64,000 nt of DNA. Source: Rubripirellula sp. GTDB taxonomy: Bacteria > Planctomycetota > Planctomycetia > Pirellulales > Pirellulaceae. This document shows, piece by piece, positions 32,790 through 44,033 of this stretch (positions are counted from its first letter, which is position 1; each line of letters starts with the position of its first letter). The notes beneath the pieces are model-generated. The model saw nothing but the letters and a program-made list of their open reading frames with translations, searched no databases and was not told the DNA's origin. The position numbers and the translations under genes were made by a program. The DNA lies in assembly GCA_965216875.1 (NCBI GenBank), contig OZ244207.1, positions 1,440,001 to 1,504,000 on the forward strand, given 5' to 3'.

Positions 32790-32801
32790 ATGGTTGTCAA
32801 A

Positions 32802-32910
32802 ACACTCTCCCTTGGGAGAGTCGGGCTCTAAGGCCCGGAGAGGGTTTGTTTTGTCTCGATCATTCCCTCCCCGGACTTTAGCGTCCGACCCTCCCGCAAG
32901 CGGGAGGGTG
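32802..32910. repeat. Composite palindromic repeat family D (inverted copy)
   Basis: Reverse complement of 24528-24644. Confidence 0.85.
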
Positions 32911-33278
32911 ATATTTGGAACGCGCGTTAACTCGGGCAAGCACTTCTAAGGGGGCACGCCACTGCTGATGGGGGATCGGGAATGGGCACGTGTCGATCTG
33001 TCCAGCAGTTGGGTGGCCCCCTCGTTCTTGATTGATCAACAGAGTGCTTGGTCAATTGCATCTGGTCGTCAGCCGAGCCATCCTATACGGATCGACGCTG
33101 TTCGAACGAATCGCCTCCGTAGAGTCCTCTTTGGTTTTTATTCAACATGGCGATTTGGATTGGCGGGCACATGGTGCGCCCCAACAAGCGTCCGATCGTG
33201 CCTAGACGTCGCACGCCTTCCGCAGAGTCGTCGACAATTTGCTGAACTTATTCTTAACACTTTGAAATGGATAAACCG

Positions 33279-34548: not shown

Positions 34549-34591
34549 AACGTCGCGTGGCGATCAATCGATTGATTCGCTACGCGACGTT
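34549..34591. terminator. Long palindrome between convergent genes
   Basis: AACGTCGCGTGGCGATCAATCGATTGATTCGCTACGCGACGTT is nearly perfectly self-complementary. Confidence 0.55.
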
Positions 34592-35375
34592 AACCGGTTT
34601 CCGCTACCTCCAACGCCCGTTCGACCTGTCTTTTAAGGCGTTGAAGCAAGTCCCGAGGCGCAAGGATTCGTACTGTTGCTCCCGGCCCCTCATCTATCGG
34701 GTACACGCCAAGTTGAGCAGCCGGATACTCTGAAGCGGTTGCCTTGAGAATTGGCCCAATCTTGCCTTCGCCCATATCAGTGCGTATCTCCAGTTTCTCG
34801 AATTGGGAGGGGCCCAGGCCGTGGGACTTGGAAAGCGAGAGCAAGAACTTTTCGATCATCGGATTCAGCTCGCGAGGAATTCCTGGAAAGGCGCTGACAT
34901 TGCCAATCGTAAAGCCTGGCGCCGCGCCCATGATGTTTTCGATAACGACAGCACCTTCCGGGAGCAAAGCCATTTTTAGACGATGCTCGTTCAGTTCTAG
35001 TTTGGTTGGATCTTTCCCCTCCTTTCTTGCTGTGGCTTGGCGGCGTTCATAGAACGATTGCAACTGCCGAACTGCTTCAGGATGTTCGAGCCGTTTTACG
35101 CAGAACGCGTCCGCAATGCACTCGGCAGTGATGTCATCGTGAGTTGGTCCAAGTCCTCCGCTCACGATGACATGTTCATAACGCTCCCGAAGGTGATCGA
35201 CAGCCGAAACGATTTCATTGTGGACATCCTCGACGACCCTAGCCTCGATGATCCTCGCATCGTAGGGACTTAGATGCCGTGCAACGTTCTGTAAGTTGGC
35301 ATCCCGAGTGTTGCCGTTAAGTACCTCATTAGCGACAACCAGCATCGCCCATCTTCTTACCGGAGAAGCCGTCAT
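34590..35375 (-). CDS. CinA N-terminal / COG1058 molybdopterin-binding-like pyrophosphatase
   Basis: ANEVLNGNTRDAN, SGGLGPTHDDITAE, MA.LPEGA..IEN..GAAPGF, FPGIPREL; no PncC domain. Confidence 0.88.
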   Translation of the reverse strand: MTASPVRRWAMLVVANEVLNGNTRDANLQNVARHLSPYDARIIEARVVEDVHNEIVSAVDHLRERYEHVIVSGGLGPTHDDITAECIADAFCVKRLEHPEAVRQLQSFYERRQATARKEGKDPTKLELNEHRLKMALLPEGAVVIENIMGAAPGFTIGNVSAFPGIPRELNPMIEKFLLSLSKSHGLGPSQFEKLEIRTDMGEGKIGPILKATASEYPAAQLGVYPIDEGPGATVRILAPRDLLQRLKRQVERALEVAETG

Positions 35376-38300
35376 CGGTTTGTATCCTTGACCTGTTCAA
35401 ACAACTTGATGAACTCGCGTCTCGTTACGTCCGCGAGTTTGCTTGGTTTGATGTCTTTCGACTTAAGCAACAATCGGAGCAATGTGTCGGCAAGCTGGGG
35501 TGAGTACTTTATGTAGTTCTTGATCTTCGACCGTTCGATCACCTTCGCTTCTCTGGTATCCAGTTCATCGATGGTGAGGTTCGACAGCGGAACGTCAAAC
35601 TCGAGTTTGCCTTCACTTGACGGCAAGCGGCAAACTGGGATGCCAATACCTCGACGGAAACGCGAGATTTCAGCGTTGGGCGAGGTGAGGTAGTTCAGGA
35701 TTTTGCATCCAACTTCAGCAGTGCCTTGAGCCACATTAGGGGGAATGGCTAGATACCATTGGCCTGCCGTAGTGATGCGACCTGGCAGATTACGCGCCTT
35801 TAAGTTCACGTTTTCAAGATCCTGGGACAGGTCGTTGGCAAGCTTGTCCGAAAGATCTTGAGCCGTGGAAAACCACTGCCTCCATACGGTGGCGGTGCGG
35901 TCGACTTGAAACGCCTCTGGGTCAGGTGAACCGGCGGCAAGCAGCTTCGAGTAACGCCGACTCTCAAAGGACTTGCGCAGTAGTCTGCAAAAAACGGTTC
36001 CCGACGCGATGGCCACTTCGTGATGATTCCCTTTCTTGTTCATGTCCGGAATTGACCATGCGTAGTGGTCCCCTCGAGCATCGTGTTTGAAAAAATCGTC
36101 GCCCATCTGATAAGCGAAGATCTCAAGGAACAGTGAATTAATGTTCTCCACAACGCCAAAAGGGCAGTCAAATCTGATCGAGGGGTTTACCTTGTCGGCC
36201 TCGCGTGCCATCGCTTCCCAAGGGTTGGGATCTGAATAGATTTTTTTGAGTGTTCCGCTACCATCATCGCGATAGCACAAGAACGAAATGTTGTCATAGA
36301 AGGGAACAGCAGTGAACTCCTTTGAGGAGTTTAACCAGACTTGGCGGCTGATTCGTTTTGGCAGGCTTTGGATTGCGCCACCGAATGCCGATTGTGGAAG
36401 TCGTTTGCTAAGCGTGCTCTCGGGGGTTCGCTTCCAATCTTGCTCGAGAGTCGCAGGTTGTTTTATTCTCGTTCGACCGGCCTTACGAATCTCTGAGACC
36501 TGAAAGGAGTCCAAGGCGACGATGGGAAGTCCGGGAAGCGCCGAATCGTGACTCGCTTCAAAGGCGAAGAATGCGGCATCGCGGTCAAGCGACCGGACGG
36601 TAACTTCAGGAGCTAGCGTCGACGTGAGCACTTCCTTTTGATTGTTCAGATAGTCATCCATGCGATAGCTTTCAAGTGGAACGACGAGTCGAACAGGCTC
36701 TTCTTGCACCCTACCGGACAGGTCCGTCGCAAGCATTCGCTCAAGGGGTTGAGTTGCCAGGCCTGACTCCGACTCTGGTATCAATTCAACTGATTCCCAT
36801 CGGTGACTCATCCTCGGCGTTTTGGTTACCCGAAGTAACATACGACGACGCCCGAGAAGTTCTTTCGGCTCAATTTCCAGCAACATGTCGGCGGCTTCAT
36901 GGATCGCTCTGCAAATGCTGGACGACTGCAAGTCTTCGACTTTGCGATCCGTTGCAAGGATTGCAACCTGTCGGCGGCGAAACCAACGAATCAGTGATGG
37001 CCCGAAGTCTGGTTCAAGATCCAGTAGTGGGCTGAGGTGGCTCCATTCCGTCGGCGCATCGAGCAACACTCGATCGATGATCGTTCCGTCATCTCTTGCC
37101 TGTTCCCAGACATCTTCCAGGTGTTTAAATAGCTCCCCCGCACTTCCAAAGCCCGGTTTCAGCTTGAGCGTGTCGATCTGTTTCTGCAGATAAATGTTAC
37201 CGCGTGATAGAAACGTATTCTCATCAGGCGCTAGCTCCTGCGCTCGATACAAGAGGTTGTTTCGAATCGCGCGTTTGACCGACTTGGACGCTAATCGATG
37301 ATCGATCTCTGATTGCTCAAATCGCATGCTCACAACGAGTCCTTTGCGATTGAGATTGTCGGATCGCGATCCAGAGGGCAGCAGCTTTTTTGATTGCTGA
37401 GTTGTTCGCCGCACCGCTGGGTCACAAAAATCTTGCTGGTTGAGCCAACTGGCGAAGGCTAGGCCCAAGTGCGTTTTGAACGTCCCAATCGGACCTGAAA
37501 CCAAGATCAGATCACCCTGCCGCACGGACTTTTCGCCCAAGTGACGATCCAAGCTTGGCAGTCCAAAGTAGCCATCAGAGCTTCCGTCGCTCGGCAAGGA
37601 TCTTACGACTCGTACGCTATCGATCGAATCGATCGCAGCAGCAGTGAGCGAGATACGGATGCCCTCACCGGATCGGATCGCAAAAAACTGCTGCCCACGA
37701 ATCTCACGCTGGAATCGGGATTTCGTGACAGCCAAACTGCGTTTGGTGTAGTCACCTGCTTTTTGGTAACCCAGTCGAATCACAGTATCGGCGATGTCTT
37801 CGCCGAAACCGAGCCAACGCTCGTCGTCCTCTTCTGCAACGAGCACAACGTTCGCGCCTGTGTCGCAAGCCTTGCGGAGTGCAGCGTACATCAGCCGCCG
37901 CGGCTTGGATCGCTCTGGATCGCTCTCGGCCTGGTCGTCCAGAAGTAACGCATTGACCGGATCAATAAAGATCGCTCGCGGGCCATCGGGAACCATGTTT
38001 TCCGAAACAGCCTTAAGAGCGTCCAGTACGGTTTCAAGCGGCATCGGAGCATTGGCGGTGTCCTTCTTCGCGCCGTTGCCTGAAGCCTTTTCTTCCGTGT
38101 CCGTGTCATCGCTGTCCTGAACTTGGTGAGTCAGCGCACACAAAACGCCGAGTGACTTAGGCGATGAGACCACTTCGTTGGGATCGTTTTCACGCGTCTG
38201 GTAAGCTGCAACGCGTGAGGCTTCGAGTCGGAATCGTCGATCGATTGAATCGGGAGACATCGATTCCAACATGTATCGAACGTCTCGCGCGGTCAGTTCT

Positions 38301-39496
38301 AATCCGAAATACCAAGCGGTTCCGCCCTTGGCCGCAACCTCTGCAGCGAGTTGCAATGAGAGAAGAGACTTCCCCGTGCCGTAGCCACCGCGTACCAAAA
38401 CGACGCGGCCCCGTGGGATATTGGTCTCATGGGTGGTGTAGAACGCAGGTGTGTCGCAAAAATTGATGCCGCCACCACCAAACAGATCGTCGAAACCCGG
38501 GATCATGGTGGGGAGGCCAAACAGGTTTGAGATCATGTACTCAAGATCGATCTCAACCGGCACGAATCGAAACCTGCCCTGACGAGAATGTGTCGTGATG
38601 TATTTGCACAACAGGCAAGTTGCAATGAAACCATGACTTTCGGGGGTCAAGCCGTCACTGCGTCTGACCCTACCAGCTTTCCGCAACCGAGTCGAAAGAT
38701 CTTCATAGAGCACGGTCCGCGATCGATGGTTTTTGTGAGGAATGATGTCCTCTAGCGAATGTGCAAACGTTCGGAACGTTTCCAACGCATCGACTTCGCT
38801 ATTGATGCCGTACATGCGGCGAATCGTCCGGCGAAGCCAGTAGTTGCGAACTGCGGGTTCGACGGAATCGCCGAAGACCAGTTCGCCCACTTCGTGAAGA
38901 CTGAAAAAAAGGAAGTGCGAATCTCGTTTCTGCCGATCAAGCTTGCGAGACACAAGCTCTGCGCCAAGGCAGCTGACAAGCTCTTCGGTCTGCTTGGAGT
39001 CCAGCCCGAGTCGCTTGCTCGTCAGGAACGCGGCGAGTACGGATGTGTTTCTATCGGTCCTCCATTTCGCTGCTTTGATTGTTGCGTCGATTTCAGCGCT
39101 GTGCCGTTCGAGCCACTGTTCAAGTTCGCCGTATTTCTTTTTGTCGGTCGAGTAGCGTTTCAGCAAGGCCGCGAGGTGCGGAAAGTCGTCATTGCCAATT
39201 CGTGACCGCAACTTTGGCAAACACTCGACAAGCTCCAGATAGCCCACGACCTCCTTGGAGACGTCTTCCACAATGCTCTTGGAACTTTGGTGTTGCGCGC
39301 GATCTTTTGCTTTATGTATCGACTCGAGTGCTCGGTTGAGATGCTTGTGCGAATTGAAAAGGCGGTTGAGTGTGACGCCCTGTTCGGCGTCGCAATCCCA
39401 CTGAGCGAGCACAAACACGGTCGTGAATCGAGCCATCGACTCAAAGTCGTCGCCAACGTGTTTTCGAACAAACGCTTGGAGCGGAGAAGCTGTCAT
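35372..39496 (-). CDS. KaiC-like tandem RecA-fold ATPase with N-terminal unknown domain and C-terminal solute-binding-protein-like domain
   Basis: Domain 1: TMIPGFDDLFGGG..IPRGRVVLVRGGYGTGKS..IADTVIRL..RSLAVTKSR. Domain 2: FGLPSLDRHLG..GDLILVSGPIGTFKT..AADMLLEI..LRVTK. C-terminus: AVPFYDNISFLCYR, TAGQWYLAIP, ILNYLTS. Confidence 0.85.
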   Translation of the reverse strand: MTASPLQAFVRKHVGDDFESMARFTTVFVLAQWDCDAEQGVTLNRLFNSHKHLNRALESIHKAKDRAQHQSSKSIVEDVSKEVVGYLELVECLPKLRSRIGNDDFPHLAALLKRYSTDKKKYGELEQWLERHSAEIDATIKAAKWRTDRNTSVLAAFLTSKRLGLDSKQTEELVSCLGAELVSRKLDRQKRDSHFLFFSLHEVGELVFGDSVEPAVRNYWLRRTIRRMYGINSEVDALETFRTFAHSLEDIIPHKNHRSRTVLYEDLSTRLRKAGRVRRSDGLTPESHGFIATCLLCKYITTHSRQGRFRFVPVEIDLEYMISNLFGLPTMIPGFDDLFGGGGINFCDTPAFYTTHETNIPRGRVVLVRGGYGTGKSLLSLQLAAEVAAKGGTAWYFGLELTARDVRYMLESMSPDSIDRRFRLEASRVAAYQTRENDPNEVVSSPKSLGVLCALTHQVQDSDDTDTEEKASGNGAKKDTANAPMPLETVLDALKAVSENMVPDGPRAIFIDPVNALLLDDQAESDPERSKPRRLMYAALRKACDTGANVVLVAEEDDERWLGFGEDIADTVIRLGYQKAGDYTKRSLAVTKSRFQREIRGQQFFAIRSGEGIRISLTAAAIDSIDSVRVVRSLPSDGSSDGYFGLPSLDRHLGEKSVRQGDLILVSGPIGTFKTHLGLAFASWLNQQDFCDPAVRRTTQQSKKLLPSGSRSDNLNRKGLVVSMRFEQSEIDHRLASKSVKRAIRNNLLYRAQELAPDENTFLSRGNIYLQKQIDTLKLKPGFGSAGELFKHLEDVWEQARDDGTIIDRVLLDAPTEWSHLSPLLDLEPDFGPSLIRWFRRRQVAILATDRKVEDLQSSSICRAIHEAADMLLEIEPKELLGRRRMLLRVTKTPRMSHRWESVELIPESESGLATQPLERMLATDLSGRVQEEPVRLVVPLESYRMDDYLNNQKEVLTSTLAPEVTVRSLDRDAAFFAFEASHDSALPGLPIVALDSFQVSEIRKAGRTRIKQPATLEQDWKRTPESTLSKRLPQSAFGGAIQSLPKRISRQVWLNSSKEFTAVPFYDNISFLCYRDDGSGTLKKIYSDPNPWEAMAREADKVNPSIRFDCPFGVVENINSLFLEIFAYQMGDDFFKHDARGDHYAWSIPDMNKKGNHHEVAIASGTVFCRLLRKSFESRRYSKLLAAGSPDPEAFQVDRTATVWRQWFSTAQDLSDKLANDLSQDLENVNLKARNLPGRITTAGQWYLAIPPNVAQGTAEVGCKILNYLTSPNAEISRFRRGIGIPVCRLPSSEGKLEFDVPLSNLTIDELDTREAKVIERSKIKNYIKYSPQLADTLLRLLLKSKDIKPSKLADVTRREFIKLFEQVKDTNR

Positions 39497-40242
39497 CGAG
39501 CCGAATTCCTACGGAGGCCAATACGTTCTTGAAAGCCAGTTTTTTTCGCAGGAAGCGCCTTGAGAGAAAGCCGCAAGTCGTATTGTTTGTTCATGATTGC
39601 GTTGGCAGGCGCTGCGGTTAGGACTTCAGGGCGGTGTGCAGGCGAATGTTCCACCGCAATAGCAAACGCAGCTGGCTCAACCACTTCAGTATTGAAAACG
39701 GTTTCGTCTTGCGATTCTTCGATGGGGGCTTCGTCCGCTAGCTCAACCGGTTGTGGCAGTGCATTGACTTCCTCGTCGCATCTCCCCTGGTCATCGCAAC
39801 CGAATACCTTGCCGCCATGTTTGAGTGTGAGTGCGAGTGAATTGAAATAGATAACAGCTGTCCGCAAAACATCGCTTGGTGAGGGCACGTGGTCATGTTT
39901 GTCCTTCATGTGTGCCTTGATGACTGCAATCAGGTTCGCGTGCCTTGGTTGTTTCGCGATTAGCAAGTTCTTTGTGAATCCGCCCGTCTGATCGTTCGAG
40001 CTCATTGCGAGCGATTTGATCGGCGATGCCACGTAGTAGGTTTCGCTTTGGTCAGAGTTTGAAACCAACAGTTGCTTTTCGCGATCGATTTCAAGAAGGC
40101 GGCGCAATAGATCAAGCGCTATACACAGCGATTCCGGGCGACCTTTGTTTCCATGCAGCTCGCGTGATATCAGGCAAAAGCTGTCTCGATCACTCTCGTG
40201 CAGTCGAAAGGAAAAGCGTTCCTTGGATTTTTTTTCAGACAT
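39493..40242 (-). CDS. Hypothetical protein, probable tandem ribbon-helix-helix DNA-binding protein
   Basis: Two similar modules: RFSFRL..PESLCIALDLL.. and NLLI..SDVLRTAV..GGKV; ATGA overlap with the KaiC-like gene. Confidence 0.6.
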   Translation of the reverse strand: MSEKKSKERFSFRLHESDRDSFCLISRELHGNKGRPESLCIALDLLRRLLEIDREKQLLVSNSDQSETYYVASPIKSLAMSSNDQTGGFTKNLLIAKQPRHANLIAVIKAHMKDKHDHVPSPSDVLRTAVIYFNSLALTLKHGGKVFGCDDQGRCDEEVNALPQPVELADEAPIEESQDETVFNTEVVEPAAFAIAVEHSPAHRPEVLTAAPANAIMNKQYDLRLSLKALPAKKTGFQERIGLRRNSAR

Positions 40243-40262
40243 TGTCTTGCCTATCGTTGACC

Positions 40263-41714
40263 CTACTCTTCAAACGTAAGATTCGTTCCGATCACTTTTG
40301 TGAGCTCTTTTCTTGCTTCATCCGTGAGGATTGATCCAGGGGGACGCTTCAGCGTGCGTTCGATATCTCGGAGACAACGTCCGACCACTTCGCAAAAGAT
40401 TGGATTCAAGTCGTCCCACGTGTTCCCGCCGATGTGACGTGTCACGAGGACATCGGGCAGGACTTCATTTAGTAGGACTTGGACGGCAGCACCCTCCTCT
40501 TTCTCGGTGCCAGCCTCTTTGTCTTCTTCGTCTTCGTCACGGACTAAATGGTCGACGCTCCGATGCGTCAACCCACCGCTCATCTCGGGACAAAGTCGGA
40601 GCAGCGGATGCCTTTCCGCGAGCACCGTTGGGTTGTTTTCGCATCGCGCGTCGAGCAAGTCAGATGCCGCGCGAATGACCTTTTTCGAGACGGCCTCAGC
40701 GACATCGTGTTCGTTCCATATCGCGTGTCTTGCGACGTTGATCAACAGCGGCAACGGGCCCTGATCACTACCCATTGCGGAAATCAACTCCTCGTTGACG
40801 ACTCCCAAAGTGTTTTGGGCTTCCTTGAGGTGAATGGACACGATGTCGCGATTGTTGACGGCGGCCGAGAGTGTTTTGCAGGCCGTGATCCAGATGGCCT
40901 TGCCATTGGAAGACCTGAATTTGCATTCCAACGTGGTGTCGTCGTCGTTGTGTTCAACGTACTCCAAACTCCAGTTTCCCCAGCCGGTCGATTTCCGAAC
41001 AAAGACGACCAGGTGTTCAAGGATCTGGGTCTCGTTCATGTTTTCGTATTTGTAGTGGAATCCAGAAAAACGATTCACTCCACAGATCACAAGACGCTGG
41101 AACAGAACGTTCACCTGGTTGCCCATCCCAAGAAATGACCAACTTTTTGAAGCGAGGCGACGACTCTGTTCCAGTCCGAAGACAAGAAAGTGGGGAAACT
41201 CCGTTTCGTCTCGGTGAGCGGTATACGCCATTCCCCGCGCGTTGGTCGTCAGCGGTCGAAACGCTTCCATGGCAAACCAGAGGGTCAAATCGACGACCGC
41301 CTCACTATTGGTCGTGACCGTGGCTGCATGAGCGTGGGAATTGTCCGGCCTTGCCTGGGCTTTGAGGCTTGGCTTGAGTCCAACCGAGAGCGAACCCAGG
41401 ACAAGGGGCACGGCTGGATCTCGCTGAAGACCAGCTATGTAATCGCCAAGGTTGTTCCCACCGGTTGTAGGCCTTGAAATAATACACGTAGCATTTGCGA
41501 TCGCCTCTTGATCGTCAGAGCTGTAGTTGGCGCTGGAACTCTCTTGGATTTGATAGAGCCTGATGTTGTCGTTCGCGTTTAGTTTCCGCAAAACGCGCAG
41601 CCCAGCGAGCAGTCCAGAGATACCGTTATTCAACGGAGCCGAATCAAGCGAGCCGGTCACATTAAAGGGGACCGACAACGGCAGTACGACGACTAATGGA
41701 GGTTTCTCTTGCAT
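40263..41714 (-). CDS. Divergent D-isomer-specific 2-hydroxyacid dehydrogenase (SerA-like) fold protein
   Basis: NSEAVVDLTL, RLASKSWSFLGMGN, DIVSIHL..NTLGVVN, LLINVARHAIWNE, AASDLL, HPL, VLVTRHIGGNT. Start at ATG 41714 preferred over TTG 41876. Confidence 0.72.
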   Translation of the reverse strand: MQEKPPLVVVLPLSVPFNVTGSLDSAPLNNGISGLLAGLRVLRKLNANDNIRLYQIQESSSANYSSDDQEAIANATCIISRPTTGGNNLGDYIAGLQRDPAVPLVLGSLSVGLKPSLKAQARPDNSHAHAATVTTNSEAVVDLTLWFAMEAFRPLTTNARGMAYTAHRDETEFPHFLVFGLEQSRRLASKSWSFLGMGNQVNVLFQRLVICGVNRFSGFHYKYENMNETQILEHLVVFVRKSTGWGNWSLEYVEHNDDDTTLECKFRSSNGKAIWITACKTLSAAVNNRDIVSIHLKEAQNTLGVVNEELISAMGSDQGPLPLLINVARHAIWNEHDVAEAVSKKVIRAASDLLDARCENNPTVLAERHPLLRLCPEMSGGLTHRSVDHLVRDEDEEDKEAGTEKEEGAAVQVLLNEVLPDVLVTRHIGGNTWDDLNPIFCEVVGRCLRDIERTLKRPPGSILTDEARKELTKVIGTNLTFEE

Positions 41715-43779: not shown

Positions 43780-43831
43780 GTCATGCTCCGCATGACAGAA
43801 GGAGATCCGCAAGGCTGAAGCTAAAGACTTC

Positions 43832-44033
43832 GTAGCTACCTTCGCCAGAAGGTGGGCGCGTTGGTTTTGCGGTGTCCACCACACCACGCTCTGGCGAGCG
43901 TAGCTACGGTGCGTTTGGAAGCCACAGAGTTCACGGAGAGCGAATTCCGATTCTTTCGTAGCTACCTTCGCCAGAAGGTGGTTGCGTTGGTATTGCGGTC
44001 TCCGCTACCCCACGCTCTGGCGAGCGTCGCTAC
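43832..44033. repeat. BIME-like array: two tandem inverted pairs of REP family A
   Basis: Units start at 43832 and 43958 (126-bp period) with conserved spacers; sits between convergent genes. Confidence 0.9.

Follow-up and report, generated by a model that had tools for sequence, protein, structure and literature searches.

The window analysed here is a stretch of 64,000 nucleotides from the genome of a Rubripirellula sp. (contig OZ244207.1, positions 1,440,001 to 1,504,000 of the forward strand). The subject of this report is a block of four minus-strand open reading frames (ORFs) within it, P0001 to P0004, built around a large ATPase fusion protein, P0003, which we call the core. A first-pass annotation, made from the DNA letters, had seen four co-oriented genes joined by a 20-bp gap and two ATGA stop/start overlaps. 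All of these are indeed present, the gap lying between P0001 and P0002 and the 4-bp overlaps between P0002 and P0003 and between P0003 and P0004. The genes, the domains of P0003 and the hairpin at the end of the block are collected in the table.

Table. Features of the P0003 locus, in window coordinates
Feature	Position	Strand	Extent	Description
P0001	40263-41876	-	TTG start; 483 aa from the ATG at 41714	degenerate D-2-hydroxyacid-dehydrogenase-like, orphan
P0002	39493-40242	-	249 aa	orphan occupying the upstream slot that varies within the family; tentative lead as an RHH-like DNA binder
P0003 (core)	35372-39496	-	1374 aa	N-terminal domain, then two KaiC-like domains (CI and CII) and a cytoplasmic fold of the sugar-binding-protein type
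N-terminal domain of P0003	38537-39496	-	residues ~1-320	mostly helical, family-specific
First KaiC-like ATPase domain (CI)	37622-38518	-	residues ~327-625	intact motifs
Second KaiC-like domain (CII)	36752-37579	-	residues ~640-915	partly degenerate
Solute-binding-protein fold	35378-36703	-	residues 932-1373	of the trehalose/maltose-binder subfamily; signal peptide absent
P0004	34590-35375	-	261 aa	stand-alone COG1058 pyrophosphatase
Hairpin	34549-34591			unique; lies where P0004 and the SHD1 gene converge

P0003 had been read as a fusion of two KaiC-like domains and a solute-binding protein (SBP), and domain searches, a structural model, Foldseek, structural alignment and a profile match all bear this out. 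The model, which covers residues 175-1374 and was built on 62 sequences, has a mean pLDDT of 81.6, and the top rows of its Foldseek search are all KaiC (E value 1e-23), spanning both ATPase domains. CI of P0003 carries the Walker A lysine K376, the catalytic glutamate E400, a Walker B motif and a K-x-R finger (K592/R594). Across 127 aligned sequences of the family, K376, D512, K592 and R594 are kept in all 127 and E400 in 125. The second domain is less complete: its Walker A lysine, K674, is found in 113 of the 127 and K892 in 93, and the position of the catalytic glutamate is mostly occupied by aspartate. Judged by these motifs, full in CI and partial in CII, P0003 is a member of the KaiC-like ATPase superfamily. 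Its N-terminal domain is common across the family (family profile A8 matches it with an E value of 2e-34) and by eye resembles tandem winged helices; searches of Pfam and PDB gave no assignment for it. None of the four proteins has a stretch of 19 residues above a mean hydropathy of 1.39, which agrees with the earlier statement that clear signal peptides are absent, the check being a hydropathy scan and not a signal-peptide predictor.

The tandem RecA-fold arrangement of CI and CII is shared with cyanobacterial KaiC (7S66, 2GBL; TM 0.70 over the target), as are the Walker A motif, catalytic glutamate and K-x-R finger of CI. However, identity to cyanobacterial KaiC and to other KaiC-like ATPases (ArlH/FlaH and the archaeal KaiC families) is about 17%, and P0003 differs from KaiC in its extra N-terminal domain, its binding fold and its degenerate CII. 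It falls below all NCBIfam cut-offs, scoring 43.9 bits against the circadian KaiC model, whose cut-off is 408. KaiB (PF07689) was not found in this 99%-complete genome, in a search whose control was positive in Synechococcus; no search was made for KaiA. Thus the earlier view that this is not a classical clock stands. By KaiC numbering, the residues of P0003 that correspond to the Ser/Thr phosphorylation sites of CII would presumably be H866/E867. The same genome encodes a second KaiC-KaiC-SBP protein of 1285 aa (C1:37367-42640, minus strand), directly behind a PilT/T2SSE-like ATPase of 469 aa and with ordinary codon use. The tail of this paralogue shares the motifs of the P0003 tail (hhalign probability 98.8). 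The branch to which P0003 belongs differs from it by having its own N-terminal domain, undetected in the paralogue, and separate, swappable partner genes.

The last ~440 residues of P0003 resemble MalE-type binding proteins and superimpose on 6DTQ with a VIA Z of 26.0 (root-mean-square deviation 3.8, 365 residues aligned). A profile made from 43 tails has 23 matches in total, among them MalE3 of Thermotoga maritima (TmMalE3, 6DTQ; E value 2.4e-20), the trehalose/maltose protein of Thermococcus litoralis (TlTMBP, 1EU8; 4e-15), the Thermus protein 6J9W (1e-10), SmoF and LpqY. According to PMC12096829, the proteins of 6DTQ, 1EU8 and 6J9W bind disaccharides (maltose or trehalose, in Table 1 of that paper), and the pocket residues of an orthologue are Asp, Phe, Trp, Gly-Gly and Arg. 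The Asp, Trp, Gly and Arg named there have counterparts in the family, where D996 is found in 118 of the 127 sequences, W1208 in 126, G1245 in 121, W1247 in 117 and R1322 in 124. Overall, the pocket-equivalent positions are conserved in 71-99% of the sequences, against 31% for the median column. P0003 itself retains D996, Y1067, N1069, E1117, W1208, G1245, W1247 and R1322. The five solved or named relatives and the P0003 tail thus have in common the fold, the profile match and the Trp, Gly, Arg and Asp of the pocket. The relatives are exported subunits of ATP-binding cassette (ABC) importers, whereas the P0003 tail forms the C-terminus of a cytoplasmic ATPase and has neither a signal stretch nor an adjoining permease; indeed, no sugar-ABC permease was found among 229 scanned neighbour proteins.

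The first-pass annotation had proposed that the tail reads a metabolite derived from a nucleotide or NAD, and this is now disfavoured. A dinucleotide-binding SBP, 7C0F, does share the fold of the tail (Z 24.3 as a structural match), but it is not among the 23 profile matches, which are named as sugar binders, carbohydrate binders or SBPs of a generic kind, and the same pocket occurs in family members that have no NAD-related neighbour. Since the solved relatives found by the profile are trehalose/maltose binders and the pocket residues are kept, the ligand is, from homology, more likely to be an alpha-glucoside than a nucleotide.

Homologues of P0003 had to be sought with an exhaustive HMMER search, word-index searches having returned only the query for P0003 and for P0001. 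At E<=1e-3 the family comprises 593 clusters, of which 191 remain at E<=1e-30. Identity to P0003 is 28-41% for the best 150 homologues, and 127 of them measure 1100-1460 aa. Named hosts are Acidobacteriota, Myxococcota, Planctomycetota, Bacteroidota, Verrucomicrobiota, a Heliomicrobium bin and Herpetosiphonaceae. The full-length gene, on the other hand, was found in none of the 400 genomes sampled from the order, nor in any of the 400 sampled from the class, the two samples overlapping. One match in these relatives (G744) is a 464-aa frame covering only the tail part of the profile and is probably an ordinary SBP. Two partial matches from Planctomycetota, in frames of 927 aa (L073, genome G421) and 741 aa (L074, genome G406), are possibly KaiC-SBP sister forms, and the remaining matches in the phylum are likewise partial. 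The family is therefore wide yet sporadic. In the tree, P0003 groups with P0005, P0008 and P0062 (100/100) on long branches, in a bootstrap that is unsettled and with some rows left out. The earlier description, a KaiC switch that is acquired, cytoplasmic, not part of a clock and equipped with a ligand-binding tail, finds support in the failure to detect KaiB and in the absence of the full gene from the order and class samples.

The genetic surroundings of the family were examined in 68 homologue loci drawn from genomes and metagenomes of several phyla, with flanks of 8 kb at most and many of them on short contigs; none of these loci belongs to P0003's own sub-branch (P0005, P0008, P0062). Removal of 10 duplicates left 58 non-redundant loci. 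A co-oriented gene lies within 120 bp upstream of the core in 46 of the 49 non-redundant loci that have room for one, and downstream in 10 of 47, so that the core gene is usually the last of its operon while the other genes vary. In 22 of the 58 loci the upstream gene ends in a shared helical C-terminal domain of about 135 aa (for example L004:7552-7995), which follows N-termini of several kinds (TPR, nSTAND1, HTH-like or unnamed) and in L010 and P0115 is fused to the core itself. This partner domain has no assignment in Pfam or PDB, its matches to designed helical repeats being compositional, and it was found neither in the anti-sigma-like or helical partner groups nor elsewhere in the window's genome. 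Some loci (L005:1690-5503, L010, L034, L047) have three unnamed helical proteins ahead of the TPR partner.

Pfam matches in the partner slot include TIR (L062, L070 and, weakly, L018), patatin (L004), CHAT (L049), nSTAND1 (L009), KAP (L045), lipase (L055) and nitrilase (L067). In nine loci (for example L020:4400-7693) a metallophosphoesterase, mostly with a sigma-70 factor, and a CxxC anti-sigma-like protein stand before the core. The loci with this cassette form one clade (100/100) that includes the TIR-carrying L062. Close relatives swap partners: the patatin of L004 lies within a 97/98 clade whose loci otherwise carry another protein, of about 270 aa, which we call H-Y-E. The H-Y-E family is found upstream of the core in 11 non-redundant loci (for example L007:6033-6851) and shows a conserved His, a Tyr-Phe, the motif PFDTGG and a Glu; it matched no library, and ADP-ribosyltransferase-like therefore remains a label given by eye. 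A further family of about 270 aa, PEVVH, occurs in five loci (L013:4180-4992, L014, L015, L017, L049), where it stands before the core together with a helical protein. It is marked by the motifs PTIxDA, GxT and ExVH, and it too gave no library match; both families look enzyme-like. In a scan of 116 of the 262 ORFs of the wider flanks, integrases, SNF2 helicases, methylases, SLOG, ABC-3C and TOTE domains were mixed with housekeeping genes.

The partners in the window are of another kind. The earlier proposal of a conserved four-gene system implied that dehydrogenase, RHH and COG1058 genes would recur beside homologues of the 1374-aa protein. In tblastn searches (E<=0.01), P0001, P0002 and P0004 matched in 0 of the 68 loci. 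Because the three flanking proteins match none of these loci, all of which lie outside P0003's sub-branch, the four-gene set is not conserved across the family and the claim should be dropped; the window's partners are best regarded as one-off, local cargo and not as defining parts. P0001 resembles a dehydrogenase as had been suggested (PF02826, E value 5e-9), but in a degenerate form: its alignment to D-2-hydroxyacid dehydrogenases is collinear but weak (308 columns), and it keeps the catalytic Arg and His, has no clearly assignable catalytic acid and has lost the third Gly of GxGxxG. Neither the protein collection nor 300 genomes of the phylum yielded a homologue of it. A single-sequence fold of P0001 was unusable (pLDDT 32). 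The protein also has an acidic, low-complexity insert (window 40501-40535) between the catalytic Arg and His regions. As for P0002, the tandem RHH assignment survives only as a lead: its Atlas neighbours (0.81-0.82) are RHH, Arc and NikA proteins, and no Pfam or NCBIfam model matches it.

The COG1058 pyrophosphatase domain of P0004 was confirmed. Its nearest relatives are alphaproteobacterial, at 46% identity. The acidic triad E17/D50/D81 and the GGLGPTHDD motif (G73-G74) match the motifs given in PMC3680494, with the spacing given there for 3KBQ. Like the stand-alone ADP-ribose pyrophosphatase of Agrobacterium treated in that paper, P0004 is a single-domain protein with the acidic triad and GGLGPX3D. 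It differs from the Agrobacterium enzyme in the GXEX3G motif, which reads A-N-E-V-L-N-G, so that the first Gly is Ala, and in its unusual site behind a KaiC fusion.

The block is AT-richer than the genome, as had been noted (GC 0.531 against 0.563, a value equally low in 0.57% of 8258 windows of the same size), and its codon adaptation percentiles are low (P0001 6.6, P0002 4.3, P0003 6.0, P0004 0.4). Composition and codon usage are thus both atypical, but the flanking DUF2293 gene is also low, at percentile 0.8, so that the upstream edge of the block is not sharp. At the other end, the palindrome described earlier folds better than 200 of 200 shuffled sequences (z -3.35), has no second copy in the genome and is a probable terminator; it lies outside the set of T-tailed terminator-like sites, and promoter and terminator scans gave results at chance level. 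The reported lack of host REP (repetitive extragenic palindromic) elements in the block was rejected as a signal, since 69% of 7.3-kb windows hold none. REP-like repeats stand at window positions 32790-32950 and 43821-44033, at about 428 genome loci (blastn merge) and in relatives of the genus.

The expected empty site, with the SHD1 and DUF2293 genes adjacent, was found in neither of two other genomes of the genus: P0003 was not detected in them, unrelated genes follow the SHD1 gene and synteny is broken. In one of these relatives (G002), the slot after the SHD1 gene is occupied by a 1088-aa protein (L097:3783-7049) with, by eye, an HNH-like start and a SLATT-like end, for which PADLOC gave no match. 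Given this protein, the slot after SHD1 may collect conflict genes.

The architecture of P0003, its CI motifs, the pocket of its tail, the sporadic spread of the family and its variable upstream partners lead us to prefer, tentatively, the reading in which a mobile, sugar-gated ATPase switch has P0003 as its constant core and acts in conflict or stress through swappable partners; this is the most probable of the readings considered here while falling short of an even chance. P0003 would form a KaiC-type double ring. A small cytoplasmic alpha-glucoside, of the trehalose, maltose, sucrose or glucosylglycerol type, would close the tail and change the nucleotide state of the ring, and the N-terminal domain would relay the signal to the protein encoded immediately upstream. 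At other loci such proteins carry or accompany TIR, patatin, caspase-like CHAT, STAND, phosphoesterase or sigma-factor modules, and the outcome would be a conflict or stress response, for example growth arrest or death. In the window's genome, the partner slot would hold the RHH-like protein and the degenerate dehydrogenase, a possible NAD(H) sensor, with the COG1058 pyrophosphatase coupled downstream of the core.

P0003 would thus work like a KaiC-type signalling hub and be organised like a conflict system centred on an NTPase. Such systems (STAND/Avs, and the MoxR- or GTPase-centred ternary systems) likewise combine a constant NTPase core with variable effectors, use TIR, patatin, caspase-like and phosphoesterase effectors, and are patchily spread among bacteria with large genomes; their STAND or AAA+ NTPases have repeat sensors, whereas the core of the P0003 family is a predicted KaiC double ring with a small-molecule-binding fold. 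Searches of the literature on KaiC, binding proteins, conflict and defence, which took in few subscription papers, found no description of a KaiC-KaiC-SBP fusion. The novelty lies in the swappable partners of this branch, in the domain that partners share and in placing the pocket within the trehalose/maltose subfamily.

Several observations weigh against the sugar-gated switch. The family was not found in plasmids or viral contigs. Where P0003 has Ser at position 997, 115 of the 127 sequences have Glu, it has Pro and Met at two further conserved positions (940 and 946), and the correspondence of D996 to the solved pockets rests on motif position, outside the displayed alignments. The partners in the window bear no likeness to toxins, nor do they carry the shared partner domain, which was not found in P0002. 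At the other loci many flanking genes are housekeeping genes, the counts of effector-like neighbours are raw, with no random-gene background for these large genomes, and the loci are related, so that counts are not independent. An anti-phage role had been entertained in the first-pass annotation, and PADLOC recognised no catalogued system for the core: no model of the 2023 release matches P0003 (the best is mad8, E value 0.002), three other core members have no match at E<=1e-4, and the 7 matches obtained over 99 proteins are all generic domains. P0003 is a member neither of the circadian clock, nor of the ABC importers, nor of the catalogued defence systems.

A bolder form of the same idea is somewhat unlikely: the family would be a widespread immunity or programmed-death system in which a sugar-gated KaiC double ring triggers exchangeable effectors by way of a dedicated adaptor domain, the alpha-glucoside being released or accumulated upon infection, envelope damage or osmotic upset.

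The switch could also be a peaceful one. The ring may read a trehalose-type sugar as an osmolyte and control transcription through sigma/anti-sigma, HTH or RHH partners, the dehydrogenase-like protein of the window supplying a redox input. The tail profile and pocket fit this proposal equally, and so do the sigma-70 region 2 matches in six loci with the CxxC protein adjoining the core, the HTH-like partners in L041, L060 and L067, and the RHH-like lead for P0002. However, no recurring gene for sugar synthesis or uptake was found near the family loci, where glycosidases are only scattered, and the rapid swapping of TIR, patatin, CHAT and STAND modules and the very patchy spread better suit conflict systems, for which such a pattern is established. 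We consider a non-defensive sensor unlikely.

Another view grants that the core is functional and takes its neighbours here for passengers or decaying genes, a one-off assembly without joint function. The whole block is also present in another strain of this lineage, in contig DNA that differs at 135 of 10,930 positions (~1.2%), and between the two strains 5 of 1374 residues of P0003 differ (0.36%), against 6 of 249 in P0002 (2.4%) and 7 of 261 in P0004 (2.7%); the neutral expectation is about 2.8%, which the two flanking proteins approach. Set beside the divergence of the contig, these values suggest that the core is strongly constrained and the flanking proteins only slightly. P0001, with its lost Rossmann glycine and its lack of relatives, has no strain variant in its cluster. 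Nevertheless, the two ATGA overlaps and the 20-bp gap, the intactness of P0002 and P0004 in both strains, the preserved catalytic triad of P0004 and the near-constant presence of a coupled upstream gene in the family make mere passengers quite unlikely. Very unlikely is the original four-gene system, in which the dehydrogenase and the COG1058 enzyme make or destroy an NAD- or ADP-ribose-derived signal read by the tail: tight gene coupling, a COG1058 enzyme that appears active and whose family prefers ADP-ribose (PMC3680494), the recurrence of NAD chemistry elsewhere (TIR and, by eye, the possibly ADP-ribosyltransferase-like H-Y-E protein), the 7C0F fold match and the substitutions in the P0003 pocket speak for it, but the three genes occur in none of the 68 loci and the tail profile finds sugar, carbohydrate or generic binders without 7C0F.

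We return, then, to the sugar-gated switch with exchangeable partners. Three unnamed partner families come out of the analysis, and the conserved pocket of disaccharide type on a predicted KaiC ring offers a route to sugar-gated signalling and to non-clock roles of KaiC in bacteria. The known small-molecule alarms of bacterial immunity are mostly nucleotides. If the immunity reading were true, a carbohydrate, and not a nucleotide, would serve as the alarm signal, and it would be read by the scaffold of a clock protein.

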